This document shows, in pieces, positions 14,042 to 28,746 of a stretch of DNA of 64,000 nt. The DNA is from Opitutaceae bacterium (lineage in GTDB: Bacteria > Verrucomicrobiota > Verrucomicrobiia > Opitutales > Opitutaceae), in the NCBI GenBank assembly GCA_035549635.1, contig DASZQN010000045.1, forward strand, positions 9,286 to 73,285, given 5' to 3'. A program made the translations under genes and the position numbers. The notes under the pieces are model-generated. The model was given only the letters and a program-made list of their open reading frames with translations. It ran no database searches and was not told the DNA's origin. Position 1 is the first letter of the stretch. Every line of letters starts with the position of its first letter.

Positions 14042-14145
14042 GGCAGGAGCCGGCCAAACAAAGCCGCCCATGGGCAAATGTCGAAAGTTTTGACGCACGT
14101 CGCCCGGTCCCGCAGCGTGCGCCCGGCTCCCGCCCCCGGCCGCGC

Positions 14146-15396
14146 ATGAATTCCCTCACCCGCCTCGTCGGCTACTCCGCCGTGCTGCTGCTCGTTTTCC
14201 TCGGCGCGGCGCTGACGGCGCAGAGCTGGCTCCACCGGCAGACCCAGGAGCTGCGCGCCGAGGCGATCGAGGCGCGGCGGGCGCAGTTCCTCGCGGCCGC
14301 GCCGGTCGTGGCGCCGCCAGATCACCGCTGGAGTGCGGCGCAGGAGCGGATCCTCGGCGCCCTGGTCGGGGGCACCGTGACCATCCGGCCGCCCGCGACG
14401 ATGGCGGCGCCAGCCGATCCCGCGATGCTCTCCTTCGATCAGCCGCTCGCCGGGACGACGCCGGCGCTCAGTGCGCGGGTGGTCTTTCCCGCGGCCGCGA
14501 TGACCCGGCTGATTGCGCTGCAACAGCGGGTGGTCGTCGGCCTGGCCCTGCTCGCGGCGGTGCTGCTCGGGCTCTGGTGCCTGCTTGTCGCGTTCGCGTG
14601 GACCCGGCCGCCGCACGAGGTCGTGTCCAGCACGCCCTGGGCGAACGCGCAGGCCGAGATGAGCGGGCTCACCCACCTGGCGCGAACCTCCGTCGCCCAA
14701 GGCGAGGAACTCGGCCGCGAGCGCGATGTGCGCCGCCGCGCCGAGGAGGATGCACAGCTACGGCAGCGGCTGCTGGCCCAGTCCCTGGAGAGCAAGATCC
14801 GGCTGGGGCACGACCTCCACGACGGGATCATCCAGTCGCTCTACGCCGTCGGCCTGACGCTGGAGTCGGTGCGCCCGCTCATCACGAGCGATCCCGGCGA
14901 GGCGGATGGGCGCCTGACGAAATGCCTGCAGAGCCTGAACGCCACCATCCGCGACGTGCGGGCCTACATCACCGGCCTCGGCCCGGAAAACCTGCGCCGG
15001 ATCGGTTTCGCCCAGGCGCTCGAGGCCCTGGTGGCCGAGCTGCGCGCGGACCGCGCGGTCCAGTTCGATCTCCGCATCGACGAGGACGCCACCGCGCTGC
15101 TCTCGCCGGAGCAAAGCATCGACGCCCTCCAGATCGCCCGCGAGGCGATCAGCAACAGCCTCCGTCACGGCCGGGCCACCGCGATCACCGTGCGCCTGCA
15201 GCACAGCGACCGCGAGATCGGGCTGCTCGTGCAGGACAACGGCTGCGGCTTCGATCCCGCCCAGGGCTCCGGCGGCCACGGCCTCGGCAACATGCGGGCC
15301 CGCGCCGAGCGCCTGCGCGCCACCGTCCGCGTCGACAGCCGCCCCGGCGCGGGCACCCGCGTCGTCGTCACCCTCGCCGTCTCCCCTCCCCTATGA
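14146..15396 (+). CDS. Membrane sensor histidine kinase, NarX/DesK (HisKA_3) type
   Basis: Two hydrophobic segments, the H-box HDLHDGIIQSLYAVGL, and the HATPase motifs ISNSLRHG and GHGLGNMRARAE. Confidence 0.85.
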   Translation: MNSLTRLVGYSAVLLLVFLGAALTAQSWLHRQTQELRAEAIEARRAQFLAAAPVVAPPDHRWSAAQERILGALVGGTVTIRPPATMAAPADPAMLSFDQPLAGTTPALSARVVFPAAAMTRLIALQQRVVVGLALLAAVLLGLWCLLVAFAWTRPPHEVVSSTPWANAQAEMSGLTHLARTSVAQGEELGRERDVRRRAEEDAQLRQRLLAQSLESKIRLGHDLHDGIIQSLYAVGLTLESVRPLITSDPGEADGRLTKCLQSLNATIRDVRAYITGLGPENLRRIGFAQALEALVAELRADRAVQFDLRIDEDATALLSPEQSIDALQIAREAISNSLRHGRATAITVRLQHSDREIGLLVQDNGCGFDPAQGSGGHGLGNMRARAERLRATVRVDSRPGAGTRVVVTLAVSPPL

Positions 15397-16052
15397 ATCA
15401 TCCGGAAAAAAAACGCGTGCGCGTCGTCATGGTCGACGACAGCGAAGTCGTGCGCATGGGCCTTCGCTCGCTCCTCGGCGCCGCCCCGGCCATCGAGATC
15501 GTGGGCGAGGCCGCCAACGTCGCTGGCGCGATCGAGACCTGCGCCCGCGTCCGGCCCGACGTGGTGCTGCTCGACATCCGCCTGCCGGACGGCACCGGTT
15601 TCGACGCCTGCCGCCGCATCCTCAAGCAGCTCCCCGAGACCCGCGCCCTGATTCTCACCTCGGTCGCGGACGACACGCTCGTGGACGAGGCGATCCGGGC
15701 CGGAGCGCACGGCTACCTGCTGAAGGAGATCGACGGTGGCGGGCTGATGCGTGCGATCGCCGACGTGGCCGCGGGCAAGTCCACGCTCGACCCCTCCGTC
15801 ACCGCGCGCGTGATCCAGCTGATCAAGAGCGGTTCCTCCACCACGCATGACGCGTTCGCGATCCTCTCGCCGCAGGAGAGGAAAGTGCTCGCGCTGATCG
15901 CGGAAGGGCGGACCAACAAGGAGGTCGCCAGCCAGCTCGGTCTCGCGGAGAAGACCGTGAAGAATTATCTCAGCAACGTGTTCGAGAAGCTGCACGTCAC
16001 GCGCCGCTCCCAGGCCGCGGCGATGTTCGTCCGCGAGTCGCGCCAGCCGTAA
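15393..16052 (+). CDS. NarL/FixJ-family response regulator (REC + LuxR HTH)
   Basis: ATG at 15393 overlaps the kinase stop (ATGA). REC features are VVMVDDSEVV and VLLDIRLPDGTG. The LuxR HTH reads LSPQERKVLALIAEGRTNKEVASQLGLAEKTVKNYLSNVFEKL. Confidence 0.9.
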   Translation: MNHPEKKRVRVVMVDDSEVVRMGLRSLLGAAPAIEIVGEAANVAGAIETCARVRPDVVLLDIRLPDGTGFDACRRILKQLPETRALILTSVADDTLVDEAIRAGAHGYLLKEIDGGGLMRAIADVAAGKSTLDPSVTARVIQLIKSGSSTTHDAFAILSPQERKVLALIAEGRTNKEVASQLGLAEKTVKNYLSNVFEKLHVTRRSQAAAMFVRESRQP

Positions 16053-16086
16053 TCCGGCCGCCAGCCGAGCCTGATTCCGGCCGCTA

Positions 16087-16120
16087 GGGCCGAATGGCCC
16101 CACCCCGGCAGGGTCTTTTT
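16087..16120 (+). terminator. Weak candidate intrinsic terminator after the response regulator
   Basis: Small GC hairpins GGGCC-GAAT-GGCCC (16087-16100) and ACCC-CGGCA-GGGT (16102-16114) are followed by TTTTT (16116-16120). The stems are short. Confidence 0.3.
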
Positions 16121-16295
16121 ACCATTCGGACGCCTCTATGCGGCGGACGGGGATTCCGATATGATGAGCGGCAAGATGGAGAGCACTTCCAGCCACCCGC
16201 TGCCCGCCCCGTTCGCCGCCGCTACGCAGTCTCCGCAACCGGCGCATTTGTGTTCGCCTTGGGGCACCGCTCCCTGCAGATAAATCGCGCGCTCC

Positions 16296-16898
16296 ATGAC
16301 CGCCCACCGCTCCGTCACATCCGGGACCCCCGCCACCGCCGTTCCGGCCGGCGCCCGGACGTCCCGTGCGCGGCGCGGCCGGGGATTCACCCTGGCGGAG
16401 GTGATGATGTCGGTGACGATCTTCGCGATGCTCTCGCTCGGCGTCTATCAGATGCTGATCAAGTCCTATGAGCTGAGCGCGATCACCCGGTACCGGGACG
16501 ATGCCCGCGCCGTGCTGCTGACCTTCGCCGACCAGTTTTCGCGCCTCCAGACGACCCAGACCCACAGCGGGACCGCCTATGCCCGCTACCTCTTCCAACC
16601 CGCCGCCTCCCCGACGGGGACCGGCCTGCAGTGGGGTTCGTTGAGCGACCAGGATTCGCTCACGGCTCTGACATCGGTTCCCTCCCTCTCAGTGACGATC
16701 GGAAATTCGGCGGGCGGAAACGGCATTCCCGCCGCCATCACGCGCACGGTGGTGCCGCTCAATTCCGACGGCACCACCGCCGGCTCGGTGACCTATACCG
16801 CTGCGGGTTACATGCTCCTCGGTACGTTCACGGCCACCTACTCTGTTTTCGGCCATACCTACGTCCAGAGTGTCTCGGTCCTGCGCGCCGCCCCATGA
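16296..16898 (+). CDS. Prepilin-type N-terminal cleavage/methylation domain protein (minor pseudopilin 1)
   Basis: Class III signal: a basic leader ending RRGRG, then FTLAEVMMSVTIFAMLSLGVYQML (G-F-T-L-x-E consensus with Glu+5). 200 aa, typical pseudopilin size. Confidence 0.75.
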   Translation: MTAHRSVTSGTPATAVPAGARTSRARRGRGFTLAEVMMSVTIFAMLSLGVYQMLIKSYELSAITRYRDDARAVLLTFADQFSRLQTTQTHSGTAYARYLFQPAASPTGTGLQWGSLSDQDSLTALTSVPSLSVTIGNSAGGNGIPAAITRTVVPLNSDGTTAGSVTYTAAGYMLLGTFTATYSVFGHTYVQSVSVLRAAP

Positions 16899-18412
16899 TC
16901 CCGACGCCGTCACAATCGAGCGCCCGCCGCCCCCGGAAATCCGGGGGCTTCACGCTGGTCGAGCTCATGGTGTCGGCGACGCTGGGAGCGCTGGTGCTGG
17001 CCGCCGCGGCGTCGATCATCGTGATGACGACCCGCACGGTGTACAAGAACACCATGGTCGACGACGCGGTGAGCACCACCCGCAAGGTCCAGGAGCACCT
17101 CAACAAGGAAATCTCCGTCTCCGTCAGCCAAAGCACGCCGATCAAGATCCAGCCGGTCTTTTCCAATCCCTCCTCCACCACCCCGGTTCGCTACGCCACG
17201 ATCACCTATCGCGTGACGATCGGCTCCTTCTCCACCGTCTATACGGCCACGGACAAGTCCAGCAGCTCGATCGTGCTCAACTCCCCGGCGGACGTGCAGC
17301 CCGCCATCGGCGACTACCTCATGATCGACAGCCCGCTGCTGGGCTCCGCCGGTCCCCCGATCGTGGGTGGCGCCCTGATCACCGCCGTGGACGACCACCG
17401 TTCCAGCGGATCCGCCGGGACCATCACCCTCACGCTGGCGGACTCGATCGACAATTCCACCTACGGCACCTCGCACATCGACATTGACGCCGGCACCATC
17501 GCCAGCATCCAGCGCGAGCGCAAATACGAGACCGTCGACGGCGGGAGCGCCGCGGTCACCGAGCTGCATTGGTATTCCTCGACCGCCTCCGGCACGCCCT
17601 ACCAGGTGCTTTCCACCAATGTGGATTCCACCGATCGCTATCTTTTCGCGCAGGTCCCGGACGACCCGAACGCCCTCGAACCGTCCGTCAGCTGGCGCTT
17701 CCGGTTTCTCTCGTCGGAAACCAATCGCTACCTGCCCGGCTCGAAGCCGAGCTACTACCAGGCCAATTACGCCGAGGGCCTGCTCATGCCGAAGTCCGGC
17801 AACCCGCTGAACGTCTCCTCCTACGCCGGCATCACGACGTCCACCTCCACGACGACGACGACGAGCACGTCGACCAGCACCTCGACCACAACCTCGACGT
17901 CCACTTCGACCACTTCGACCACCAGTTCCAGCACCTCCATCTCCACGACGACTTCGACCACGTCGTCCATCTCCACGACGACTTCGTCTTCGAGCACCAC
18001 CTCGGTCGCGACCACCACCACGTCCACCTCGGTGACGACGACCACGTCGACGACCTCGACGTCGACGACGTCCATCTCGACGACCACCACGTCCACCACC
18101 TCGACGACGTCCATCTCCACGACGACGACGTCCACCACCTCGACGACGTCCATCTCGACGACCACCACGTCCACCACCAGCACGTCGTCGACCTCCATCT
18201 CGACATCGTCGACATCCTCGACCTCGACCTCGTCCTCGGTCACGACCACCTCGACGTCCACCTCGTCCACTTCGAGTTCGGTGTCGACCACCTCGACGTC
18301 GAGCACCTCGAGCACCACGTCGATTTCGACCACCACGACGTCCAGCTCGACCTCCAGTTCCACCAGTATCTCCACGACCACAACCACCACCTCCATCGTC
18401 TTCGATGGTTAG
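16895..18412 (+). CDS. Prepilin-type pseudopilin with 187-aa C-terminal poly-Ser/Thr tract
   Basis: ATG 16895 overlaps the upstream stop (ATGA). The leader is MIPTPSQSSARRPRKSG followed by GFTLVELMVSATLGALVLAAAASIIVM. A globular region of ~290 aa is followed by residues 314-500, which consist only of S/T plus a few I/V/A. The protein ends IVFDG. Confidence 0.75.
   Translation: MIPTPSQSSARRPRKSGGFTLVELMVSATLGALVLAAAASIIVMTTRTVYKNTMVDDAVSTTRKVQEHLNKEISVSVSQSTPIKIQPVFSNPSSTTPVRYATITYRVTIGSFSTVYTATDKSSSSIVLNSPADVQPAIGDYLMIDSPLLGSAGPPIVGGALITAVDDHRSSGSAGTITLTLADSIDNSTYGTSHIDIDAGTIASIQRERKYETVDGGSAAVTELHWYSSTASGTPYQVLSTNVDSTDRYLFAQVPDDPNALEPSVSWRFRFLSSETNRYLPGSKPSYYQANYAEGLLMPKSGNPLNVSSYAGITTSTSTTTTTSTSTSTSTTTSTSTSTTSTTSSSTSISTTTSTTSSISTTTSSSSTTSVATTTTSTSVTTTTSTTSTSTTSISTTTTSTTSTTSISTTTTSTTSTTSISTTTTSTTSTSSTSISTSSTSSTSTSSSVTTTSTSTSSTSSSVSTTSTSSTSSTTSISTTTTSSSTSSSTSISTTTTTTSIVFDG
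17834..18394 (+). repeat. In-frame low-complexity Ser/Thr-coding tract (561 bp) built from ACG/ACC/TCG/TCC/AGC codons
   Basis: Translated directly in the frame of CDS 16895..18412. There are no stops and no Pro, Gly or charged residues. The tract generates long spurious ORFs in other frames and on the opposite strand. Confidence 0.9.
18068..18184 (+). repeat. Three tandem 39-bp units each encoding TSISTTTTSTTST
   Basis: Units at 18068-18106, 18107-18145 and 18146-18184. The peptides are identical, while the DNA differs at synonymous positions (TCG/TCC, ACC ACC/ACG ACG, TCG/AGC). Confidence 0.9.
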
Positions 18413-18436
18413 GCCGGCGGCCGTCCTTCCCTTGTC

Positions 18437-20368
18437 ATGCCCATGAAAACTCACGCCCAACGCGGCAGTGTGCTGGTCACGACCCTCGTCTTTCTCACCA
18501 TCATCATCATTGGTGCGTTTGCCGTCTTCCAGCTGGCCCTGAACTCGTTCAAGAATTCCGAGCGCAACGAGCTGCGCGCCCGCGCCCGCGCGGTCGCCGA
18601 AAGCGAGCTCGAGTACCTGTACTACAATTTCGAAGGGCTGATCGTCGGCGGATCCTCGGCCAACAACGTGCCGTCGAATTTCTCGGCTTTCTGCGACCTC
18701 TCCAGCACACCGACGACGGACCATCCGCCCTTTACCGCCGCCCACCAGGCGCAGAACGACGGCTGGGTCGTCCGCCGCTCGATCACGTTCGACCAGACCG
18801 TGACCGGCACGATCCCGGGCACAACCAAGACCGGCACGATCTCCTATCTGACCGCGAAGATCGAGGTCGTTCCCGGCGCCCGGAGTTCGTCCTACAACAC
18901 GCTGGCCGTGCGCGTGGGACGCCGCTTCAACAACTCGACGACGTCGATCTTCCAGTACAGCATCTTCTTCCAAGGCGACCTGGAACTCGCGCCGAGCGGC
19001 GTGACCACCATCACCGGCGACATCGCGGCCAACGGCAGCATCTACATGGGCGCAAGCAGCGGCGGCACCCTCACCATCAACAACCAGATCCGCCATCTTT
19101 CCGGCTATTACTTCAACGAGGACTCCGCGGGCGCGGCGACGTACCGCAAGCCCGGCACCTGGAATGCCGCGACCGGCACCATCGTCACCACCGACACGAC
19201 CTCCCTCAACGCGCCCCTGTTCGGCACCTCCCAGATCAGCCAGTCCGAGACGATGAACTCGCCGGAGAATCTCCTCGGCGGCCTCGACGCCGACGCGCTC
19301 GCCACTTCGCGCAACGACCTGTTCGGCGCGACCGACACCCCGGCCAACCTGGCCATCGCCGAAAACAACGTCTATCGCTCCCTCATCGCTCCCCCTCCCT
19401 CCGCGGCTTCCACCGACGAGTATCCCACCGGGACCAACCTCAGCACCACTTCAGACGACGCCAGCCTCAACGCCCTCCGCGCGTATACCCGCGCGGGCGT
19501 GATCATCACGGTGGGCCGCACCGACAATGGCGATGGCACTTACAGTTATCCGGTCACCTTCACCGAGACCCGGTCCGGCGTCTCCACCACGGTGCCCGCC
19601 AGCACCTACGCCGGCGTCGTCACCAGCACGAGCATGTACGACCAGCGGGAGGGAAAATACGTCACGATCACCGATATCGATGTCGGTGCCCTCAAGACGA
19701 AGTTGTCCGCCAGCTTCCCCAACGATGCCAGCGGGCAGCCCACCTTTAACGGGCTGCTCTACGTGAACCTCAAGGATGGAGTGACCACCAATCCCGCCGC
19801 CGTCCGCCTGAACAACGCGGCGACGACGCCCGGCGTCGATACCGGCAGCGGATTTTCCGTCGCGACCAACGGCGGCCTCTACGTCCGGGGCAGCTACAAC
19901 ACCACGCCCTACGTCGATCCCAACACCGGCGTCAGTTCCAACAACCCCTGCATGCTGATGAGCGACGCGCTCACCATTCTCTCTTCCTCCTGGAATGACG
20001 CCAACGCCGGACCCACCTCCGACATCAGCCAGCGCGTCGCGACCACCGGCACCACCACGATCAACTCCGGCATCCTCACCGGCAACGTCCCGGCCTCCGC
20101 CACCGTGGCGAGCGGCGGCGCCCAGAACCTCGTGCGCTTCCTCGAGAACTGGACCGACAACAGCGGCAACAAGGGCACGGTGACCTTCAACGGCTCGCTC
20201 GGGCGGCTGTTCTCCTCGAAATATTTCACCGCCGCCTACCAGCAGCCCGGGCAGATCTACACGGTGCCGAACCGCAACTTCACGTTCAACACGGCGATGA
20301 AGACCAAGCGGCCGCCGGGCTCGCCGACGATCACCGCCTTCAGCCGCGGCACTTTCTTCACCTGGTAA
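18437..20368 (+). CDS. Large PilX/GspK-like minor pilin-like secreted protein
   Basis: 643 aa. The N-terminus QRGSVLVTTLVFLTIIIIGAFAVFQLAL lacks Glu+5, as in GspK/PilX-type proteins, and is followed by the PilX_N-like RARARAVAESELEYL. The remainder is T/S/N/G-rich and probably beta-rich. It starts 24 bp after the preceding pseudopilin. Confidence 0.65.
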   Translation: MPMKTHAQRGSVLVTTLVFLTIIIIGAFAVFQLALNSFKNSERNELRARARAVAESELEYLYYNFEGLIVGGSSANNVPSNFSAFCDLSSTPTTDHPPFTAAHQAQNDGWVVRRSITFDQTVTGTIPGTTKTGTISYLTAKIEVVPGARSSSYNTLAVRVGRRFNNSTTSIFQYSIFFQGDLELAPSGVTTITGDIAANGSIYMGASSGGTLTINNQIRHLSGYYFNEDSAGAATYRKPGTWNAATGTIVTTDTTSLNAPLFGTSQISQSETMNSPENLLGGLDADALATSRNDLFGATDTPANLAIAENNVYRSLIAPPPSAASTDEYPTGTNLSTTSDDASLNALRAYTRAGVIITVGRTDNGDGTYSYPVTFTETRSGVSTTVPASTYAGVVTSTSMYDQREGKYVTITDIDVGALKTKLSASFPNDASGQPTFNGLLYVNLKDGVTTNPAAVRLNNAATTPGVDTGSGFSVATNGGLYVRGSYNTTPYVDPNTGVSSNNPCMLMSDALTILSSSWNDANAGPTSDISQRVATTGTTTINSGILTGNVPASATVASGGAQNLVRFLENWTDNSGNKGTVTFNGSLGRLFSSKYFTAAYQQPGQIYTVPNRNFTFNTAMKTKRPPGSPTITAFSRGTFFTW

Positions 20369-20389
20369 GGTTTCCCCGCCGTCCGTCCC

Positions 20390-21280
20390 ATGAAAACCCT
20401 CCCGGCCGAGCCCGCCCGCCTCCCCGCTCCGCGGCCGGACACGCTCACGCCGTTCCGCGGCTTCCTGCATTTCGGCGAGGACGAGGACAATTTCGTGCTG
20501 CTGCGCGCGCGGCGGCTGCTGCGGCTGGGACGGGTCGATCTCGGGCACCTGCTCGAGTCGGAGCCGCCGCCAGATCCCGATGTCACCGCGGTCGTTCCCG
20601 CCCGCAACGAGGAGTCCACGGTCGGCGACGTCGTGCGCGAGTGCCTGCACTACGCGGCGCGCGTCATCGTCGTCGAGGGCGGCTCGACCGACCGCACCGC
20701 CGAGGTCGCGGCCAGGGCCGGGGCCCTCGTCGTGCGCGACCAGGGCCTTGGGAAGGGCGCAGCCCTCCGGCTGGCCGTAGCGCGGGTGGAGACGCCCATC
20801 TGCGTCTTCGTCGATGCCGACGGGTCCCACGATCCGATCGACATTCCGCTGCTCGTGGCTCCGATCAAGAGCGGCCTCGCCGACCACGTCACCGGCTCCC
20901 GCCTCCTCGGCGGCTCGGACGAGCTCCATGGCGGCGGCGACGAGTTCCTCCGGCTCGCCGGCTCGGCCTTCATCACTTCGCTCATCAACTGGCGGTTCGG
21001 CACCTGCCTGTCCGATTCGCAGAACGGCTTCCGCGCGATCCGCACAGACGTGTTCCGCCGCCTCGATCTGCGGGCGCGCCACACCACGATCGAGATGGAG
21101 ATGATCATGGCCACGCTGGTCTCGGGCTTCACCCTCACCGAGGTTCCCACCCACGAGCGTCCCCGCGCCGCCGGGTACTCCAAGATCTCCCTTTCCCGCC
21201 CCGGCACGTGGCTGGCCTACGGCTGGCAGCTGGTCCGCGGGCTGTGCCGGCGAAAGACTTCCTCCCGCCGTCCCGCATGA
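20390..21280 (+). CDS. Family 2 glycosyltransferase (polyprenyl-phosphate sugar synthase-like)
   Basis: GT-A signatures VTAVVPARNEE, VVEGGSTDRT and the DxD-type VDADGSHD. Resembles Dpm1/ArnC/GtrB-type enzymes. It starts 21 bp after the PilX-like gene. Confidence 0.85.
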   Translation: MKTLPAEPARLPAPRPDTLTPFRGFLHFGEDEDNFVLLRARRLLRLGRVDLGHLLESEPPPDPDVTAVVPARNEESTVGDVVRECLHYAARVIVVEGGSTDRTAEVAARAGALVVRDQGLGKGAALRLAVARVETPICVFVDADGSHDPIDIPLLVAPIKSGLADHVTGSRLLGGSDELHGGGDEFLRLAGSAFITSLINWRFGTCLSDSQNGFRAIRTDVFRRLDLRARHTTIEMEMIMATLVSGFTLTEVPTHERPRAAGYSKISLSRPGTWLAYGWQLVRGLCRRKTSSRRPA

Positions 21281-23028
21281 ACGGGGGATTCGACGCCGTG
21301 ATCGGCGTGTGGGACGGCCACGACGCTGGTGCCGCCTTGGTCGTGGACGGCCAGGTCCGGCTCGCCCTGAACGAGGAGCGCCTGAGCGGCCGCAAGCTCG
21401 ATGTCGGTTTCCCCGCGCGCGCCGTCGCCGCCATGCGCCAGGCGGCGGGCGGCCGTCGCATCGCCTGGGCCGGCACCACGTCCGACGCCGCCAAGACCCT
21501 GACGCGGCTGATTCCCTCCACCAAGGAAAGCTATTACCGGCTGCGCCGCCGGCTCGAGCCGCCCGGCCCGCTCCACGGGCTCACCGTGCGCGCGAAATAT
21601 TCACTCACCCAGCTGCCGACCAACGGGCTCCTGCGCGCCTGGGCGCGACGCTCGTTTGCCTCGGCCTTGCAGGTCCCGGCGGGCGAGGTCTTTCTCGTGG
21701 ATCACCACGCCGCGCATGCGGCCTCGGCCGCCTTCTGGCCCGAATGGGGCGGCGACGCCACCATCGTCACGCTCGACGGCATCGGCGATGGCGAATCGGG
21801 CTCCGTCTGGGCCTGGTCGGAGTCGGCCGGCGACATTTCCCCGCTGATCTCCATCCCCGGCTCGGCCTCCCTCGGCCTGTTCTTCGAGCACGTGACCAAC
21901 GAGCTCCAGATGCGCCCGCTGGAGGACGAGGGCAAGGTCATGGCGCTGGCGACCTACGCCGTCGAGACGCCGGTGGAGCGCAATCCGTTCCTGAAGTGGT
22001 TCTCCCTCACCACGGACGCGAAGCGGCTGCCCGTGCTCCGCTGCTCCGTGGCGCCGTCGCGCATGGCGCGCGAGGTTGCGCGCATCGTCTGGTGCACGCC
22101 GCGCGAGCAGGTCGCCCGGATGGCCCAGCAGACGCTGGAGGTCCTGGTGCCGCGGTTCTTCGCGCTGCTGGTCGAGGCCACCGGCCGCGGCGCCTTCGGC
22201 TACGCCGGCGGCGTGGCTTCGAACATCAAGGTCAACCGGCTCATCCGCGGCCTGCCGGGCGTCGAGCGCCTCGAGGTGTGCCCCGCGATGGGCGACGGCG
22301 GCCTCGCGCTCGGCGCCGCGCTCGCCACGTGGCGCCGCCTGACCGGCCGGCGCCCCCAGCCCTTCTCGGATTTCCGCCTCGGCTCCGACCAGGGCGACCT
22401 CGGACGCGACGCCAGCGCGATCGCGCGCCGGACGTCCGCGTCGCTCCTGCGCCCGCCGGATATCGCGGCCGCCGTCGCCGAACGCGTTGCCGCCGGCGAG
22501 ATCGTGATGTGGGCCCAGGGCCGCATGGAACTCGGGGCCCGCGCCCTCGGCGCCCGCAGCATCATCGCCCGGGCCGACAGCGTCGCCGCCCGCGACGATC
22601 TCAACCTGCGCCTCAAGCGCCGGGTGTGGTACCAGCCCTTCTGCCCCTCGATCCTGCTGTCCGAGGCGCCGGTGCTGCTGGCCGACTATCGCGGCCCGCG
22701 CGACACGAACCGCCACATGACCGCCGGCTTCCTCACCACGCCGCGGGGCCGGACGGCGCTCGCCGGTGCGATCGGCCCCGACGGCTCGTGCCGTCCCCAG
22801 ATGGTGGTCGAAAACGAAAGCGACCCATGGTACCGTCTGCTCGCCCGGGTGAAGGCCCTCACCGGCACCGGCGCGATCATCAACACGAGCCTCAACATGC
22901 ACGGGAAGCCGATGTCCGATGCGCCCGAGGGCGTCGTGGAGGCCTGGCTGGAAAGCGGCGTCGAGCATCTCGCGCTCGGTTCCGCCCTGCTGTCGAAGAA
23001 GGCCGCTGCGGCCGCCCCCTCCGCATGA
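21277..23028 (+). CDS. NodU/CmcH-family carbamoyltransferase
   Basis: ATG 21277 overlaps the GT2 stop (ATGA). N-terminal ASKHA-like IGVWDGHDAGAALV...LNEERLSGRK, conserved VDHHAAHAASAF, and a C-terminal region ending ...NTSLNMHGKPM typical of the family. Confidence 0.85.
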   Translation: MNGGFDAVIGVWDGHDAGAALVVDGQVRLALNEERLSGRKLDVGFPARAVAAMRQAAGGRRIAWAGTTSDAAKTLTRLIPSTKESYYRLRRRLEPPGPLHGLTVRAKYSLTQLPTNGLLRAWARRSFASALQVPAGEVFLVDHHAAHAASAAFWPEWGGDATIVTLDGIGDGESGSVWAWSESAGDISPLISIPGSASLGLFFEHVTNELQMRPLEDEGKVMALATYAVETPVERNPFLKWFSLTTDAKRLPVLRCSVAPSRMAREVARIVWCTPREQVARMAQQTLEVLVPRFFALLVEATGRGAFGYAGGVASNIKVNRLIRGLPGVERLEVCPAMGDGGLALGAALATWRRLTGRRPQPFSDFRLGSDQGDLGRDASAIARRTSASLLRPPDIAAAVAERVAAGEIVMWAQGRMELGARALGARSIIARADSVAARDDLNLRLKRRVWYQPFCPSILLSEAPVLLADYRGPRDTNRHMTAGFLTTPRGRTALAGAIGPDGSCRPQMVVENESDPWYRLLARVKALTGTGAIINTSLNMHGKPMSDAPEGVVEAWLESGVEHLALGSALLSKKAAAAAPSA

Positions 23029-24836
23029 GCCCGCGTTTCCAGCGTTTTCTCTGGCTCGGGTTCGCCCTGGCGGTGCTCCTGGCGACCGGGCTGTGGGCGC
23101 TGGGAGTCAGCGAGCGGACCATCGAGGCCCAGCGCCGCCTGGTCCCCGTCTCCACCGTCTGGGGCATGCACGCGTGCGTGGTCGCCATCGTCGCCGGGCT
23201 CGGCGCGATCGCCGTTCCGGTCGCGCGGATCCTGGGACGCCGCCGCCTTCTGACCGCGCTCGTGCTCGTGATCATCGGGGCCCTCGCCTGCGGGCTGGCG
23301 CCGCGCACCACCCGGATCTTTTTCGACGAGCACATCTACGCGCAGATCGGCCAGACCATCGCCCACACCGGACGCGCGGAAAACGTCAACTATGCGCGCG
23401 CGCAGTATGGGAAGCTCGAGGTTTACGACGCCGTGACCAACAAGCAGCCGAACGGGCTGCCCTACCTGCTCTCCTGGATCTTCCGGGTCGTCGGTGTCTC
23501 GGATGAGGCGGCGCACTTCCTGAATCCGGCGCTGGTGGGCCTGACCGCGGCGGCGCTCTACCTCGGCCTCGCCCTGGTCCCCTGGACCCTCCCGGCCGGC
23601 GCCGGCCTCGCCGCGGCGCTGCTGTTCGTCTTCACCCCGCTGGTGCTGTGGTGGGGGCACACCGTCGCGGTCGAGCCGGGGGCCGCGGCGAACGCCACCC
23701 TCGCCTTTTTCGCCGTCTGCGCCTACGCGCGGCTGCGCGACCGCGGGACCGCTCAGGGCGGCCCCGCCGCCGCGATGCTGCTCGCGGGCGCCACGGGCTT
23801 CGCGGTCTACTTCCGGCCCGAGTCCGTCCTGGTCTTCCCGCTGGTGGCCGCCGTGCTGTGGTCCACCGACGATCGTTTCATCGAGGACGTGTCCGCATGG
23901 GGCGCGCTCGCGCTCGCGATCGCGCTCGCGGCGCCGAATGTCATGCACCTCTGGTCGATGCGCGAGGAAAGCTGGGGCGCGCGCGACGGCCGGCGCTTCG
24001 CGCTCGATTTCGTCCAGAAGAACCTCGCCAGCAACGGAGGCTATTTCACCGACCTCAAGTGGTTCCCGATCGCCGGCACCGTGCTCGCGGGGCTGGGCGC
24101 GCTCTGGCTGCTGAAACGCAACCGCACCGCCGGCCTCGCGCTCGGCCTCTGGTTCCTTTTCTCCTGGGGCGTCTTCGTCCTCTTCTACGCCGGCGGCTAT
24201 TACTACGGGGCCAGCTCCCGCTACGCCGTGGTCTCGTGCGCGCCGGTCGCCGTGTTCATGGGCATCGGTCTCACCGCGGCGGTGGCCCGGCTGCGCTCCG
24301 CGCCTCTCCTCGGCTGGGGGCTGGCGGCCGCGGGCCTCATCAGCTGGGTCGCGAGCATGCACTACGTGCCGACGCGCAGCCGCGAGGCGATCGAGGCGCA
24401 GGCCGACGTCGACTTCGTCGCGCGGATCGCGCCGACGCTGCCGACCGGCTCCCTCGTCGTCTCGTCCGATCCCTGCGTGTGGTTGCTGCAGGGGGTCAGC
24501 GCCTCGCAGTTCTACACCGTCGAGCACATGATGCGCGAGGAGCTCGGGGAGCTCGTCAACCAGTACCCCGGCGGCATCTACATCCACTGGGGTTTCTGGC
24601 ACAACGCGGAGGCCGCTGCGGCGGAAGTCACCGCCCGGCTCCTCGTCGAGGACCACGCCGCCGTCGTCGCCCGCACCCAGAGCGAGGCCTACAAGCTCGC
24701 CCTCTACCGTCTCGACACCCCGGAGGCGCTTGCCCGCCCCGGCGTCAAACCGCCGCTTCCCCTGCGGCCGCAGACCGACCTCGATGCCGTGATGGCCCGC
24801 GTCCGGGCCGGATCCACGCCGGCCCCGTCCCAATGA
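23025..24836 (+). CDS. GT-C fold membrane glycosyltransferase (PMT_2/ArnT-like)
   Basis: ATG 23025 overlaps the upstream stop (ATGA). About 11 TM segments. The first periplasmic loop carries the acidic FFDEHIYAQIG motif, as in PMT/ArnT-type GT-C enzymes. The C-terminal ~150 aa are soluble. Confidence 0.7.
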   Translation: MSPRFQRFLWLGFALAVLLATGLWALGVSERTIEAQRRLVPVSTVWGMHACVVAIVAGLGAIAVPVARILGRRRLLTALVLVIIGALACGLAPRTTRIFFDEHIYAQIGQTIAHTGRAENVNYARAQYGKLEVYDAVTNKQPNGLPYLLSWIFRVVGVSDEAAHFLNPALVGLTAAALYLGLALVPWTLPAGAGLAAALLFVFTPLVLWWGHTVAVEPGAAANATLAFFAVCAYARLRDRGTAQGGPAAAMLLAGATGFAVYFRPESVLVFPLVAAVLWSTDDRFIEDVSAWGALALAIALAAPNVMHLWSMREESWGARDGRRFALDFVQKNLASNGGYFTDLKWFPIAGTVLAGLGALWLLKRNRTAGLALGLWFLFSWGVFVLFYAGGYYYGASSRYAVVSCAPVAVFMGIGLTAAVARLRSAPLLGWGLAAAGLISWVASMHYVPTRSREAIEAQADVDFVARIAPTLPTGSLVVSSDPCVWLLQGVSASQFYTVEHMMREELGELVNQYPGGIYIHWGFWHNAEAAAAEVTARLLVEDHAAVVARTQSEAYKLALYRLDTPEALARPGVKPPLPLRPQTDLDAVMARVRAGSTPAPSQ

Positions 24837-25978
24837 GCGCCCTCTACTCCTGGAGCCGCTTCGCCCTGCGCACCGCCGCGTCCGCCGCAGGGGTGGAAGG
24901 GCGCCCGACCAAGCTCATCTACATCGTGACGAAGCGCTGCCACTCGCGCTGCGTGTACTGCGACATCTGGAAGGTGAAGGACACTCCCGGCGGCCTCGAC
25001 GGCGAGCTCACGCTCGACGAGGTGAGGAAGGTCGCCGGCGCCAACCCGTTCCTGCAGTGGATCGATTTCACCGGTGGCGAGCCGACGGACCGGCCGGATT
25101 TCGTCGAGCTGGTCCAGGCCTTTTCCGTCGCCTGCCCGGACCTGCTCCTCGTGCATTTTCCCACCAACGGGATCGCGACGAAGCGCATCACCGGCGTGGT
25201 CGGGCACCTGAAGGACCTGCTCCGCGCCCGCCTCGTGGTGACCGTCTCGATCGACGGCCCGCCCGAGCTCAACGACCGTCTCCGCGGCATCCGCAACGAC
25301 TTCGGCCACGCGGTGGACTCGTTCGTGGCCATCCGGCGGCTCCTCGGGCCCGAGAACGCCTTCGTCGGCATGACGCTGCACGGGTGCAAGGCGTCCTGCG
25401 GATTCACCACCACCGAGCTGGTCGAGCGGACCTTCACCGCGGTCAACGACGCACTGCAGGCCCGCGGCGAGGCCCCGATCGGCTGGGGCGAATTCCACCT
25501 CAACATTCCGCATCTGTCCGAGCACTACTACGGCAACGAACATTCCGACGCCACCGCGAAGGACGGCTTCGGGGGTCCGGCCCACCGCGCGGAAATCGCC
25601 GATGCGCTGCGTTTCGCCGCGGCCCGGACGAAGAGCGGCGGACTGACGGCCATGCGCGCCGTCGAGCGCATCTACCGCTCCGAGGCCATGCGCTACCTTG
25701 CGCACGAGCCGATGTCCATCACCTGCTCCGCGCTTCTCTCCACGGCCTACCTTTCGGAAAAGGGCGACGTCTATCCCTGCACCATCTGGGACCGCCCGCT
25801 GGGCAATGTGCGCACCACGGGCTACGCGCTGATGCCGCTCATCGAGGCGGCCCGGCGACAGGGTGTGCGGCAGGAGGTCGCCGACCGGCGCTGTCCCAAT
25901 TGCTGGACTCCCTGCGAGGCCTATCCCGCCATCGGCACCTCTCCCCTGCAATCGCTCGCGGCGCTCGTCCGCGGCTGA
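24833..25978 (+). CDS. Radical SAM enzyme with C-terminal SPASM/twitch-like Cys cluster
   Basis: ATG 24833 overlaps the upstream stop (ATGA). CX3CX2C motif in KRCHSRCVYCDIW. C-terminal cysteines sit in CSALLSTAYLSEKGDVYPC and CPNCWTPCE. Confidence 0.85.
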   Translation: MSALYSWSRFALRTAASAAGVEGRPTKLIYIVTKRCHSRCVYCDIWKVKDTPGGLDGELTLDEVRKVAGANPFLQWIDFTGGEPTDRPDFVELVQAFSVACPDLLLVHFPTNGIATKRITGVVGHLKDLLRARLVVTVSIDGPPELNDRLRGIRNDFGHAVDSFVAIRRLLGPENAFVGMTLHGCKASCGFTTTELVERTFTAVNDALQARGEAPIGWGEFHLNIPHLSEHYYGNEHSDATAKDGFGGPAHRAEIADALRFAAARTKSGGLTAMRAVERIYRSEAMRYLAHEPMSITCSALLSTAYLSEKGDVYPCTIWDRPLGNVRTTGYALMPLIEAARRQGVRQEVADRRCPNCWTPCEAYPAIGTSPLQSLAALVRG

Positions 25979-25995
25979 GTCCTCCCTTTCCCGCC

Positions 25996-28101
25996 ATGAA
26001 CGACTCGTCCCGCCCGCCCAAACCCCTGATCCAGGTGCTTCCGATGCTCGTGGTGGCAGCCGTCCCCCTTGCGGCCTTTCTCGGTCTTTCGCTCGCCTTC
26101 CTTCTGGGCAAGCGGTTGCTGCCCGTTTACGGCGGGACCTTTGGCGGCTGGCTGGGTTGCGTGACCTACGGCCAGCTCGCGCTGCTGCTCGGCCAGGTGT
26201 GGGCGGCGTGGCTCCGGCGGCGGGATGCGCTGTTCCAGACTGCCGCCACCGCGGTCCTCAGCCTGCTGGCCGTGCTGACGTTCCACCTCCCCGACAATCA
26301 CCCGTCGGCCGGCGCCGGGCTCCTCCAGGCGATGTGGCGCCTTGCCCTCTCCAGCCTGCCTGCCGTCGTTCTGCTCGCCAGCGTCTCGCCGGTCCTGCAG
26401 GGCTGGCTTCGCCGCCGCGGCCAGGAAGTCCCCCCTTATCTCTATGCGCTTTCGAGCGTGGCGGCGCTCGGGGCCGTGTTCATCTATCCCTTCGTCATCG
26501 AGCCTGCCCTGCGCGTGTCGAACCAGGGGTTCTACTGGGAGGGAGGCCTGATCGTCCTCGCCGGCCTCCTGGCCGCGTCGGCATATATCTTCAAGCAGAC
26601 CGCGGGCGACTCCGGCAAGGAGCCCGTTTCAGGAGTCGCTCCGTCCACCTCCCTCGGCCTCCCGCTGCTGTGGCTCTGCTTGAGCGGCCTGACCTGCGTC
26701 AGCCTGCTCGGCGCGAGCTATTACCGCTCGATGGAGCTCGGATCGACGCCGCTGGCCTGGACCACGCCGCTGACCATTTATCTGCTCAGCATCGTGGTGA
26801 CCTTCTCCGGCCACTGGCGCCGATGGATGACCCTGACGACCGTCGTGTGGCTGGCGGCCAGCCTCACCGGCTTCCTGGTGGCGAAGCAGTCCCATCCGCA
26901 CGTCAACGGCGGCGTCGCCCCCTACCTCTTCTCACTCGCGGCCAGCGGGGCGTTCCTCGGCCACGCGTTGCTGCAGAGCCTGAGGCCGGCGCTGCACTCG
27001 GAAAAGTTCCTGTTCTGGGTCGCGACCGGCGGCCTGCTCGGCGCCGCGGCGGCCGCGACCATCATTCCCCGCCTGCTGCCCCAGCCGATCGAACTCGAAC
27101 TGGCCTCGGCTGGGCTGCTGGTCATGGGCATGCTCTGGCTCGTCGACCGGCATGACCCGGCGGTCGTCGCCGTCACCGCCGGCGTCCTCGTGATTCCCGT
27201 CCTCGGGCTCATCGTGCAGCAACGATATTTCGACGCGGCCGGCGGCGTGGTCCGCCGCGAGCGCGACTTCCACGGCAACATCTTCGTCCGGACCGACGCC
27301 CGCTGGGCGTCGCTCACCAGCTATGCCACGACTCGTGGCACCCAACTCCTGACCGATGCGGCCTCGCGCCGGCGCCCGACGCTTTATTACACCGAGAGCT
27401 CCGGCCTCGGCCGGGTCCTGCAGAAACTGCAGGCGGCCCGGCCGCGGATGAACGTCGGGGTGATCGGCCTCGGCGCGGGAACGCTCGCCGCGTATGCGCG
27501 GGCGGACGACACCTACGATTTCTGGGAGAACGATCCGAAGGTTCTGCGGGCGGCTCGCGAAAGCTTCACCTACGTCGCCGAGGCGGCGGGCCGGATCAAT
27601 CTCGTCCCCGGCGACGGCCGCCAGGCGCTGGAGGAATCCAAGACCGACTACGATCTGATCGTCGTCGACGCCTTCACCGGTGACGGGCCGCCGGCCTACC
27701 TGCTCACGCGCGAGGCGATGAGCGCTTACCTGAACCGGTTGAACGCGCGGGACGGGCTGCTGGTGATCCACGCCCAGGCGAACAACTACACGTTCTTCCC
27801 CGTCATCGAGGCCTCCGTGCGGACCCTGGCGCATTCGGCCCTCAATATCATCACCGAGATCAAGGAGACGACCGCCGACCGCGACCTGGATCCGCGGCCG
27901 ACGGAATACGTCGTCGTGTGCCGTCCGGAAAAGCGGCAGGAGATCGTGGATTGGGCTCCCGCCGAGGAAGACGGCGGACGGGTGACCCGCAAGGTCCAGG
28001 TCAACGACTCCGTGCTCGTGAATTCACAGCTGATCTGGAGCGACGATCGAAGCGCCGCATCTGACGCGCTCGACATGCCGCGGTTCATGGCCGCCCACTG
28101 A
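25996..28101 (+). CDS. Polytopic membrane protein fused to spermidine synthase-like (class I methyltransferase-fold) domain
   Basis: Start MNDSSRPPKP (ATG 25996), 17 bp after the radical SAM stop. About 12 TM segments are followed by NVGVIGLGAGTLAAY...NDPKVL...INLVPGDGRQAL...YDLIVVDAF, the SpeE-like aminopropyl/methyltransferase fold pattern. Confidence 0.75.
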   Translation: MNDSSRPPKPLIQVLPMLVVAAVPLAAFLGLSLAFLLGKRLLPVYGGTFGGWLGCVTYGQLALLLGQVWAAWLRRRDALFQTAATAVLSLLAVLTFHLPDNHPSAGAGLLQAMWRLALSSLPAVVLLASVSPVLQGWLRRRGQEVPPYLYALSSVAALGAVFIYPFVIEPALRVSNQGFYWEGGLIVLAGLLAASAYIFKQTAGDSGKEPVSGVAPSTSLGLPLLWLCLSGLTCVSLLGASYYRSMELGSTPLAWTTPLTIYLLSIVVTFSGHWRRWMTLTTVVWLAASLTGFLVAKQSHPHVNGGVAPYLFSLAASGAFLGHALLQSLRPALHSEKFLFWVATGGLLGAAAAATIIPRLLPQPIELELASAGLLVMGMLWLVDRHDPAVVAVTAGVLVIPVLGLIVQQRYFDAAGGVVRRERDFHGNIFVRTDARWASLTSYATTRGTQLLTDAASRRRPTLYYTESSGLGRVLQKLQAARPRMNVGVIGLGAGTLAAYARADDTYDFWENDPKVLRAARESFTYVAEAAGRINLVPGDGRQALEESKTDYDLIVVDAFTGDGPPAYLLTREAMSAYLNRLNARDGLLVIHAQANNYTFFPVIEASVRTLAHSALNIITEIKETTADRDLDPRPTEYVVVCRPEKRQEIVDWAPAEEDGGRVTRKVQVNDSVLVNSQLIWSDDRSAASDALDMPRFMAAH

Positions 28102-28115
28102 CCGTCGCGGAGGGG

Positions 28116-28724: not shown

Positions 28725-28746
28725 GCCGCCACCCCCGTTCCGCGCC

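Follow-up and report, generated by a model that had tools for sequence, protein, structure and literature searches.

A minor-pilin triad with a mucin-like Ser/Thr tail beside a four-enzyme cassette in Opitutaceae: a possible pilus-tip glycoprotein locus

The window analyzed here, a 64-kb stretch of DNA from an Opitutaceae MAG, contained eight co-directional genes at 16296-28101: a triad of minor (pseudo)pilins (pp1, pp2, and pp3), a four-enzyme cassette, and a gene for a SpeE-like membrane fusion protein (Table 1). We give an even chance to the reading that this is a pilus-tip glycoprotein locus, in which the cassette glycosylates the Ser/Thr tail of pp2. More broadly, and with confidence somewhat short of even, we propose that an undescribed, widespread four-enzyme cassette makes a carbamoylated, radical-SAM-tailored polyprenyl-phosphate sugar and adds it to exported proteins at their long Ser/Thr tracts. 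In Opitutia-labelled genomes it would be hard-wired to a tip minor pilin, giving a mucin-like brush and a new type of bacterial, possibly archaeal, protein O-glycosylation. An earlier sequence-only reading had proposed a self-contained machine that O-glycosylates its own pseudopilin, and overall that interpretation was partly supported.

Table 1 Features of the locus and its upstream flank, in window coordinates.
Feature	Coordinates	Strand	Evidence
Histidine kinase (HisKA_3 + HATPase_c), possible regulator, accessory	14146..15396	+	Pfam
NarL/LuxR-type response regulator (Response_reg + GerE), possible regulator, accessory	15393..16052	+	Pfam
pp1, small minor (pseudo)pilin, leader G-FTLAE	16296..16898	+	N_methyl 28.4 bits
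pp2, minor (pseudo)pilin: leader, globular domain of ~300 aa, Ser/Thr tail, terminal SIVFDG	16895..18412	+	
Mucin-like Ser/Thr tail of pp2, residues 319-505, predicted O-glycosylation acceptor	17849..18409	+	Composition, repeats
pp3, large PilX/ComZ-type tip pilin without Glu+5	18437..20368	+	AF2 fold, ComZ match
GT2 glycosyltransferase, probable polyprenyl-phosphate sugar synthase type (AglJ/PpgS/DPM/ArnC-like)	20390..21280	+	Pfam, NCBIfam, PDB
O-carbamoyltransferase, NodU/TobZ/NovN/GdmN type, soluble	21277..23028	+	Pfam, PDB; HHxAH motif
GT-C membrane glycosyltransferase (PMT_2 family), C-terminal periplasmic alpha/beta domain	23025..24836	+	AF2, Foldseek, alignment
Radical SAM enzyme, SPASM/twitch-like C-terminal Cys cluster	24833..25978	+	Pfam, Cys motifs
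Polytopic membrane domain (~440 aa) fused to SpeE-like Rossmann domain, accessory	25996..28101	+	NF037959

All eight ORFs were in frame with an ATG start. Adjacent genes overlapped by ATGA at four junctions (16895, 21277, 23025, and 24833) and were otherwise separated by gaps of 24 bp (18413-18436), 21 bp (20369-20389), and 17 bp (25979-25995), so the coordinates bore out the gene number and spacing described previously. Profile searches with Pfam and NCBIfam likewise agreed with the earlier domain calls for all products. Termination between 20368 and 20390 had been raised as a check on the link between the pilins and the enzymes; the sequence of this 21-bp pp3/GT2 junction had no terminator-like site, a result that is uninformative on a shared promoter or transcript. 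The description of the locus as self-contained did not hold, as neither the locus nor the large ORFs scanned at 37-62 kb encoded a prepilin peptidase, pilus or type II secretion machinery, or a recognized flippase.

Both pp1 (leader RRGRG/FTLAE) and pp2 (RKSGG/FTLVE; N_methyl 30.2 bits) exceeded the 21.2-bit Pfam threshold for N_methyl and had the type IV pilin leader, with G-1, F/M+1, E+5, and a hydrophobic alpha-1N helix. GspJ, ComGF, or PilV models matched pp1 at the N-terminus alone, and its orthologues occupied the same position in related loci at 29-52% identity. The leader of pp3 (QRG/SVLVT) lacked Glu+5 and had no N_methyl match in Pfam. Its AF2 model (pLDDT 91.9) had a long N-terminal helix (residues 9-70) followed by a beta-rich body, the features of the PilX/GspK/ComZ class (a large beta-rich insertion and a pilin-like N-terminal helix without Glu+5). 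The sole significant PDB match of the model was Thermus ComZ (6qvi; E 5.5e-8, TM 0.24-0.29), a beta-solenoid PilX of core minor-pilin sets. The N_methyl scores, leaders, and ComZ fold match thus upheld the earlier view of two G-F-T-L-x-E leaders and a third, GspK/PilX-like protein without Glu+5. The C-terminus of pp3 (residues 531-617 only) matched NCBIfam HpsA (NF038301; 6e-13), the cyanobacterial PilX_EPS/HpsA type, at 47.3 bits versus the full-length equivalog cut-off of 400. By its modelled fold pp3 is ComZ/PilX/HpsA-like, and size and gene order suggest that pp1 is PilV-like and pp2 PilW-like.

The final 187 residues of pp2 were 90.4% Ser/Thr (94 T, 75 S), as the sequence-only reading had described. 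The DNA of the tail consisted of imperfect 39/78-bp repeats, and its length differed by 26 aa from that in the near-identical genome GCA_964504515.1. A Thr/Ser-rich tail of 64-360 aa was kept in every readable pp2 orthologue (25/25).

We compared the locus with 39 other Verrucomicrobiota (Opitutia-labelled) species-representative loci covering the pp3/enzyme junction. pp3 adjoined the GT2/carbamoyltransferase/GT-C/radical SAM block in 39/39, and the order of the triad was the same in all except L036, where the triad was inverted yet still adjacent. Identities across these loci were 29-52% for the pilins and 48-85% for the enzymes, with at least 59% for the radical SAM enzyme. The adjacency of pp3 and the enzyme block, retained in every locus despite pilin divergence, is confirmed as beyond chance, and the proposed neighborhood link between the Ser/Thr-tailed pilin and the enzymes was conserved throughout the Opitutia-labelled set. 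Verrucomicrobiota synteny could still reflect one inherited event, and the examples may all stem from a single ancestral arrangement. A minor-pilin operon and an envelope glycosylation cassette that became neighbors once in an ancestor and were co-inherited without functional coupling would fit this history and the uninformative junction scan. We consider this very improbable, given that the pp3/GT2 junction is so short, that the adjacency has outlasted both divergence of the pilins to ~30% identity and the L036 inversion, and that Magnetococcales and Dadabacteria evolved like pairings independently (below).

The GT2 (Glycos_transf_2, 3e-19) contained the DAD motif. Its best NCBIfam matches, all below cut-off, were AglJ (136 vs 325 bits), PpgS (71 vs 370), and Dol-P-hexose transferase, and its PDB sequence matches included ArnC and Pyrococcus DPMS. 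The carbamoyltransferase had the Kae1-like N domain and YrdC-like C domain of NodU/CmcH/TobZ (Carbam_trans_N 2e-17, 64 bits; Carbam_trans_C 3e-41, 141 bits); it matched NovN, TobZ, and GdmN in the PDB at ~1e-46 to 1e-40 and fell below the NCBIfam NodU equivalog cut-off (69 vs 1000). The radical SAM enzyme (Radical_SAM 6e-13, 49.7 bits) contained the CxxxCxxC motif as C36x3C40x2C43, with all three Cys invariant. Its C-terminus (C298...G311x4C316 and C354x2C357x3C361) had five conserved Cys (Cx12Gx4C, Cx2Cx3C) versus the seven canonical in SPASM, and its SPASM score lay at 21.1 bits, with the cut-off at 21.5. Carbamoyltransferases of this kind require ATP and carbamoyl phosphate, and radical SAM enzymes require SAM and a reductant. 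Because both enzymes are soluble and use these cofactors, they are predicted to modify the sugar donor in the cytoplasm and not the exported glycoprotein. Tailoring must therefore precede transfer, which replaces the earlier idea that the glycan or protein could be decorated further.

The 603-aa product of the gene at 23025-24836 passed the fold test set for it earlier, as its AF2 model (pLDDT 88.7, pTM 0.90) had a GT-C fold. The best 43 Foldseek matches in the PDB were all GT-C enzymes, among them STT3/AglB/PglB, ArnT, AftB, ALG12, DPY19, PMTs, and Emb. ArnT (TM 0.54-0.55, normalized by target length) ranked behind only ALG12, and Pmt1, Pmt2, and Pmt4 were partial matches (TM 0.25-0.48), in a comparison that cannot tell protein-acting from lipid- or glycan-acting GT-Cs. 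Residues R97, D101, E102, and Y105 (RIFFDEHIY), which carry the acidic motif of the first extracytoplasmic loop, were invariant in 69 aligned sequences. The protein matched PMT_2 (PF13231; 4.7e-7, 30.6 bits) and had no match at E<=0.1 to Pfam PMT (PF02366), which a GT39 protein O-mannosyltransferase should have, or to MIR, which a eukaryotic PMT should have as well. NCBIfam returned no ArnT, Lgm, or Flm equivalog match and did not place the protein in ArnT (GT83), its one match being LA_3751/3752 at 15.6 bits; a PDB sequence search had no matches. The probable type of the adjacent GT2 suggests that the GT-C uses a polyprenyl-phosphate-linked donor.

The fusion protein scored 45.7 bits against NCBIfam 'fused MFS/spermidine synthase' (NF037959; cut-off 40), but reached only 19.5 of the 22.9 bits needed for Pfam Spermine_synth. 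In an alignment to spermidine synthase, GLG-AGT replaced the GGGDGG dcSAM motif, which sets the protein apart from SpeE. The fusion was restricted to Verrucomicrobiota loci and was missing from L046, L052, and all loci outside Verrucomicrobiota, and the "five-gene operon" proposed earlier is better described as a functional unit of four genes. The domains of the NarL-type two-component pair upstream were as predicted, but its suggested control of the locus fared less well: kinase/regulator homologues lay upstream of pp1 in only ~12/19 testable Verrucomicrobiota loci, and we treat the pair as accessory.

By themselves the enzymes make up an independent cassette of GT2, radical SAM (SPASM-type or B12-type), carbamoyltransferase, and GT-C that recurred in many phyla, usually without pilins. 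The GT-C subfamily comprised 644 representatives of 50%-identity clusters at E<=1e-30 and spanned, among others, Verrucomicrobiota, Magnetococcales, Bdellovibrionota, Dadabacteria, and a DPANN archaeon. The link to Ser/Thr-tailed pilins nevertheless recurred with non-homologous proteins. In a Magnetococcales locus (L086) the gene for a 573-aa N_methyl prepilin, whose poly-S/T tract spanned ~190 aa, lay 2.9 kb upstream of the cassette, and more prepilin-type genes were nearby. In a Dadabacteria locus (L059) two TadE-type pseudopilin genes directly followed the radical SAM gene, one with a Ser/Thr tract of ~100 aa. The tract proteins of both loci were without homology to pp2 past the leader, and the order of the cassette genes differed. 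A Magnetococcus GT-C homologue (L168) was found within an MshE/secretin pilus cluster.

Ser/Thr tracts of at least 40 aa numbered 12 in 885 kb of non-Verrucomicrobiota GT-C loci versus 0 in ~315 kb of control sequence, an enrichment that comes from low counts and from controls not matched for taxon. Such tracts were present in just 8/43 long loci outside Verrucomicrobiota, mostly on lipoproteins or on secreted proteins that contain S/T linkers, including glycoside hydrolases and CBM proteins, and not on pilins. These neighbors, the breadth of the GT-C subfamily, and the frequent occurrence of the cassette alone amid housekeeping genes would fit a general PMT-like protein O-glycosylation system, with pp2 one of many substrates and its adjacency not a dedicated pairing. 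We regard this as quite unlikely, since the triad adjacency was invariant in Verrucomicrobiota, even after the L036 inversion, and the tail was kept in all readable pp2 orthologues; it also overlaps the pilus-tip glycoprotein reading without excluding it. The eukaryotic PMTs (GT39) and actinobacterial Ppm1/Pmt, in which a GT2 polyprenyl-phosphate sugar synthase and a GT-C modify Ser/Thr-rich regions of exported proteins, share with our GT-C the acidic DE motif in the first extracytoplasmic loop. They differ in that our GT-C matches PMT_2 alone, and weakly, and in that Ppm1/Pmt has no counterpart to the carbamoyltransferase and radical SAM steps.

The cassette might instead modify a non-protein envelope acceptor (lipid A/LPS core, lipoglycan, peptidoglycan, or secreted polysaccharide), with the pseudopilus exporting or displaying this material, as has been suggested for HpsA and the Hps pseudopilins of cyanobacteria, and the Ser/Thr tail only a spacer, which we think unlikely. 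In the lipid A pathways ArnC/ArnD/ArnT, Bordetella LgmA/B/C, and Francisella FlmF2/NaxD/FlmK, a GT2 makes an undecaprenyl-phosphate sugar that is tailored in the cytoplasm and transferred outside by a GT-C. Our cassette has the same GT2/tailoring/GT-C design, ArnT ranks near the top of the structural matches of its GT-C, and most non-Verrucomicrobiota copies were without an adjacent Ser/Thr-tract or pilin-like protein. However, the lipid A pathways tailor by deformylation or deacetylation, whereas the predicted chemistry here is carbamoylation and a radical SAM reaction, and there was no ArnT or ArnC equivalog-level match. In the inspected loci no lipid A/LPS or Wzx/Wzy/ABC polysaccharide export genes were beside the cassette, and the neighbors were pilins and S/T-tract proteins. 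The sequence-only reading had held that copies without a Ser/Thr-rich neighbor, for example beside LPS or lipid A genes, would count against it; most copies were without such a neighbor, which goes some way toward that refutation, and none of the examined copies was beside recognizable LPS/lipid A genes. The cassette was also carried by a Woesearchaeota MAG (hhalign 95% probability for the GT-C), and as Woesearchaeota are without LPS, lipid A is unlikely as a general acceptor. Finally, an envelope acceptor leaves unexplained the poly-S/T tracts on unrelated, cassette-adjacent pilin-like proteins in three phyla.

The HpsA match of pp3 also bears on the envelope acceptor. The cyanobacterial hps locus, like ours, joins pseudopilin genes to glycosyltransferase genes, and HpsA-D are tied to polysaccharide export (PMC6495340 and a preprint). 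The hps glycosyltransferases are thought to make a secreted polysaccharide, unlike the role proposed here, and the available portions of both accounts mention neither a Ser/Thr-tailed pilin nor a GT-C/carbamoyltransferase/radical SAM cassette.

Pilin glycosylation by a GT-C has a precedent in Pseudomonas aeruginosa, where TfpW uses a lipid-linked donor to modify pilins with oligomers of D-arabinofuranose (bioRxiv 10.1101/2020.04.19.049825). In group IV strains (Pa5196/PA7) the GT-C gene is beside the pilin gene, as here, and the pilin is O-glycosylated in the periplasm with a lipid-linked sugar made in the cytoplasm, as we propose. TfpW modifies a few Ser/Thr sites of the major pilin, whereas the predicted acceptor here is a minor pilin whose mucin-like tail runs to 64-360 aa. 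The TfpW donor comes from DprE1/DprE2-type D-arabinofuranose synthesis, in contrast to the GT2, carbamoyltransferase, and radical SAM enzyme of this locus.

For the pilus-tip glycoprotein reading we infer the following chemical steps, acceptor, and tip location. The three pilins would form a core minor-pilin set capping a type IV filament or pseudopilus, the machinery for which would be encoded at another place in the genome. The GT2 would put a monosaccharide onto polyprenyl phosphate at the cytoplasmic face, and the carbamoyltransferase and radical SAM enzyme would tailor the lipid-linked sugar or its nucleotide precursor, still in the cytoplasm; the order and substrates of these two steps are guesses. 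The lipid-linked sugar would then be flipped, and candidate flippases are the SpeE fusion, through its polytopic domain, and the GT-C. Once in the periplasm, the sugar would be transferred by the GT-C to Ser/Thr residues in the tail of pp2, with pp2 still anchored in the inner membrane. The GT-C may also act on other exported Ser/Thr-tract proteins. The outcome would be a dense glycosylated brush at the pilus tip.

If confirmed, a minor pilin bearing such a mucin-like tail would add a new class of pilus-tip protein, and the tailoring of a lipid-linked sugar by both carbamoylation and radical SAM chemistry would be new to bacterial protein glycosylation. The pilus-tip glycoprotein reading would give a function to a conserved and widely spread cassette, and the invariant pairing in Verrucomicrobiota names a specific predicted acceptor, which makes that function directly testable. 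A glycosylated tip could serve adhesion, polysaccharide binding, or phage evasion in the abundant Verrucomicrobiota of soil and freshwater.

Eight co-directional open reading frames fill 16296-28101 of the window, all with ATG starts and with the overlaps and gaps (24, 21 and 17 bp) first described from sequence alone. Pfam and NCBIfam profile searches agreed with the enzyme domains assigned in that reading. The genes immediately upstream encode a HisKA_3 kinase and a NarL-type regulator, and opposite-strand housekeeping genes flank the whole group (MetG, MenF and MenD upstream, Ham1 and RibD downstream). A scan of 13900-28900 found no promoter-like sites, and none of the seven terminator-like sites in that interval (5.5 expected) fell at a gene junction. 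Neither the flanks nor ten large ORFs scanned at 37-62 kb encoded pilus or secretion machinery; the ten comprised sensor kinases, AlaRS, LytB, an adenylate cyclase, an esterase and two ORFs without a Pfam match.

Features of the window and of related loci (L handles) in other genomes and MAGs; a slash marks the leader boundary
Feature	Sequence	Position	Strand	Detail
Two-component pair	window	14146-16052		
pp1	window	16296-16898	+	RRGRG/FTLAE; N_methyl 28.4 bits (cut-off 21.2)
pp2	window	16895-18412	+	RKSGG/FTLVE; N_methyl 30.2 bits (cut-off 21.2)
pp2 tail	window	17849-18409	+	
pp2 terminal motif	window	18392-18409	+	SIVFDG
pp3	window	18437-20368	+	QRG/SVLVT; no Glu+5
GT2	window	20390-21280	+	
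Carbamoyltransferase	window	21277-23028	+	
GT-C	window	23025-24836	+	
Radical SAM	window	24833-25978	+	
SpeE fusion	window	25996-28101	+	
ATGA overlaps (four)	window	16895, 21277, 23025, 24833	+	
pp2 of GCA_964504515.1	L001	2141-3580		
pp2 tail to radical SAM	L006	8314-11134		
Second tailed ORF	L011	2-787		
Second tailed ORF	L025	1-996		
Secreted protein	L060	5762-6113		
Secreted protein	L064	2004-2852		
Woesearchaeota cassette	L069	9321-14346		
Ser/Thr-tract ORF pair	L087	12016-16005		
Second PMT_2 gene	L087	13368-15164	-	
MshE/secretin pilus cluster with GT-C	L168	3192-21698		
B12-type slot	L170	6499-7839		
B12-type slot, other loci				L092, L093, L099, L101, L105, L108, L110, L117, L124, L131, L137, L143, L144, L147, L151, L154, L163, L164

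The first three genes encode a pilin triad (pp1-pp3). Structure prediction gave a confident model of pp3 (pLDDT 91.9), whose only significant structural match was ComZ, the Thermus competence pilin (E 5.5e-8, low TM). HpsA matched the pp3 C-terminus in NCBIfam; at 47 bits the hit stayed below the 400-bit cut-off, and full HpsA membership was rejected. According to a 2026 preprint, a beta-solenoid interrupts the pilin fold in cyanobacterial PilX proteins, one subfamily of which is homologous to HpsA, and PilX-PilV-PilW-FimT form a core minor-pilin set. Given the ComZ fold match, the HpsA-like C-terminus and this set, the triad is best read as a core minor-pilin set capping a filament, in which pp3 is the PilX/ComZ-type member. 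By size and gene order alone, pp1 would be PilV-like and pp2 PilW-like. The pp2 globular domain had no match in a sequence search against solved structures, and a PHROGs scan of pp3, the radical SAM enzyme and the SpeE fusion returned no useful match.

Ser and Thr make up 90.4% of the C-terminal 187 residues of pp2. The strongly negative GC skew (-0.18 to -0.25) across the pilin genes at 16001-20000 probably stems from ACC/ACG/TCG-rich Thr/Ser coding and not from a replication signal. In the Opitutaceae MAG GCA_964504515.1 (L001) the radical SAM protein is identical and gene order is unchanged. Its pp2 has 479 residues, compared with 505 in the window, and is otherwise identical; the 26-residue difference is one 78-bp tail repeat unit, so closely related strains differ in tail length.

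A scan of relatives, limited to one genome per species, found 79 loci, some of them labelled Opitutus sp. GAS368. All 39 of the Verrucomicrobiota (Opitutia-labelled) loci that span the junction have pp3 next to GT2, carbamoyltransferase, GT-C and radical SAM, and an inverted triad in one of them (L036) keeps its adjacency to the enzyme block. Identity across these loci was 29-52% for the pilins and 48-85% for the enzymes. Every readable pp2 orthologue (25/25) carries a Thr/Ser-rich tail of 64-360 residues, a count that includes "TTTAGTTTKG"-type tails under the initial composition threshold. The SpeE fusion is missing from the two most divergent loci, L046 and L052 (Opitutaceae-labelled; L052 lies in JASGHD010000001.1). 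The NarL-type pair, which the sequence-only reading had offered as a possible controller, does lie upstream; it is adjacent in only ~12 of 19 testable loci, and both it and the SpeE fusion are therefore accessory.

Several further features were seen among these relatives. The pp2 tails of L046 and L052, at 64 and 76 aa, are the shortest, and in L052 histidine biosynthesis genes (HisC- and HisB-like) follow radical SAM. In L006 the pp2 tail runs directly into radical SAM, with pp3, GT2, carbamoyltransferase and GT-C absent and no N runs; either the deletion is genuine or the MAG is misassembled. After the tail, T-S-I-x-(F/Y)-D-G-COOH closes most pp2 orthologues (C-termini in L007-L056), a motif with a possible role in recognition, docking or strand complementation. 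Just upstream of pp1, L011 and L025 have a second Ser/Thr-tailed ORF, truncated by the locus end and closing in ...E(Y/F)DG, so that some genomes may carry the tailed pilin as tandem paralogues.

Among the enzymes, GT2 best matched AglJ, PpgS, a Dol-P-hexose transferase and ArnC in profile searches. The carbamoyltransferase is a soluble two-domain O-carbamoyltransferase of the TobZ/NodU type, dependent on ATP and carbamoyl phosphate. The radical SAM enzyme has a borderline SPASM domain and matched PqqE and SkfB weakly among solved structures. The SpeE fusion joins a polytopic membrane domain, at most a candidate flippase, to a SpeE-like domain (NF037959) whose alignment lacks the GGGDGG aspartate and which therefore may not use decarboxylated SAM. 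The remaining cassette enzyme, GT-C, was a PMT_2 membrane protein by profile search and had no match in a sequence search against solved structures. The sequence-only reading hinged on a GT-C fold for this 603-aa product, and a confident model (pLDDT 88.7, pTM 0.90) predicts one, with all 43 best PDB matches being GT-C enzymes (STT3/AglB/PglB, ArnT, AftB, ALG12, DPY19, Pmt1/2/4 and Emb). R97, D101, E102 and Y105 (RIFFDEHIY) were invariant in 69 family members. The fold search on this predicted structure leaves open whether the acceptor is a protein, a lipid or a glycan.

Outside Verrucomicrobiota, GT2, carbamoyltransferase, GT-C and radical SAM occur together, with neither the triad nor the SpeE fusion, in MAGs that carry the labels Lysobacteraceae, Dadabacteria, Bdellovibrionales and Oligoflexia and in a Woesearchaeota MAG. 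The enzyme block is thus an independent cassette. The GT-C subfamily comprises 644 representatives of 50%-identity clusters at E<=1e-30, and a GT-C-seeded metagenome scan added 80 loci. Among 22 non-Verrucomicrobiota loci with at least 5.5 kb on either side, carbamoyltransferase was present in 19 (usually directly upstream of GT-C), GT2 in 17, radical SAM in 17 (9 of SPASM type and 8 of B12-binding type in the same slot) and all four in 16. The B12-binding enzyme takes the slot between GT2 and carbamoyltransferase in about half of non-Verrucomicrobiota cassettes, a non-orthologous replacement inside a conserved cassette. In the Woesearchaeota MAG, hhalign aligned the membrane protein beside the other three genes to the GT-C family (probability 95%), YFDE motif included. 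Two Bdellovibrionota-like loci (L064 and L060) encode, directly after GT-C, a secreted protein without a Pfam match; their N-termini are alike, which would fit a conserved partner or substrate.

The strongest argument that the tail could be the acceptor is the recurrence of the cassette beside unrelated Ser/Thr-tract proteins. In a Magnetococcales locus (L086), which has more prepilin-type genes nearby, a 573-aa N_methyl prepilin with a central poly-S/T tract of ~190 residues is encoded 2.9 kb upstream of it. In Dadabacteria (L059) a pair of TadE-type pseudopilin genes comes immediately after radical SAM, one of them with a ~100-residue poly-S/T tract. These tract proteins had no homology to pp2 past the leader, and their cassettes differ in gene order. 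Homology of pp2 or pp3 to Magnetococcales pilin-like proteins was likewise confined to the leader, so the recurrence arose independently and not by transfer of a cluster. Ser/Thr-tract neighbours elsewhere are lipoproteins and secreted enzymes with S/T linkers. Tracts of at least 40 aa numbered 12 in 885 kb of non-Verrucomicrobiota GT-C loci versus 0 in ~315 kb of taxon-unmatched control sequence, where ~4 were expected at equal rates (Poisson P(0) ~0.014). Since 35 of 43 long non-Verrucomicrobiota loci lacked such a neighbour, the cassette is not obligatorily paired with an adjacent substrate. RiPP-type maturation of the tail by the SPASM enzyme was considered unlikely because the tail has no Cys and about half of cassettes carry a B12-type enzyme; the expected export of pilin tails also counts against it.

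Two other arrangements were seen. In L087 two paralogous lipoprotein-like Ser/Thr-tract ORFs flank a second PMT_2 gene near the cassette. Magnetococcus sp. YQC-9 (L168), also taken as part of the recurrence, has a GT-C homologue within a pilus cluster that encodes a secretin and two MshE-type ATPases; the homologue stands alone there, carbamoyltransferase, GT2 and radical SAM genes being absent.

The carbamoyltransferase and radical SAM enzyme are both soluble and must therefore act in the cytoplasm. By analogy with Arn, Lgm and Flm/Nax logic, the most economical scheme would have GT2 load a sugar onto polyprenyl phosphate; the lipid-linked sugar would be carbamoylated and altered by radical chemistry, then flipped, and once in the periplasm GT-C would attach it to Ser/Thr residues in the tail of membrane-anchored pp2. 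In a documented precedent, the GT-C TfpW, whose gene neighbours that of a pilin, glycosylates the pilin from a lipid-linked donor (bioRxiv 10.1101/2020.04.19.049825). The layout, domains and GT-C fold were confirmed and the proposal that this locus O-glycosylates the tail is partly supported; we infer the acceptor identity and every chemical step. Pilin O-glycosylation by GT-C and lipid-linked sugar tailoring are both known kinds of system. Within the searchable literature, queries on the cassette or locus and on a fused MFS/spermidine synthase found no description of either the mucin-tailed minor pilin conserved across Opitutia-labelled genomes or the widespread GT2 / radical SAM / carbamoyltransferase / GT-C cassette, which crosses domains if the binning of the Woesearchaeota MAG (L069) is correct.
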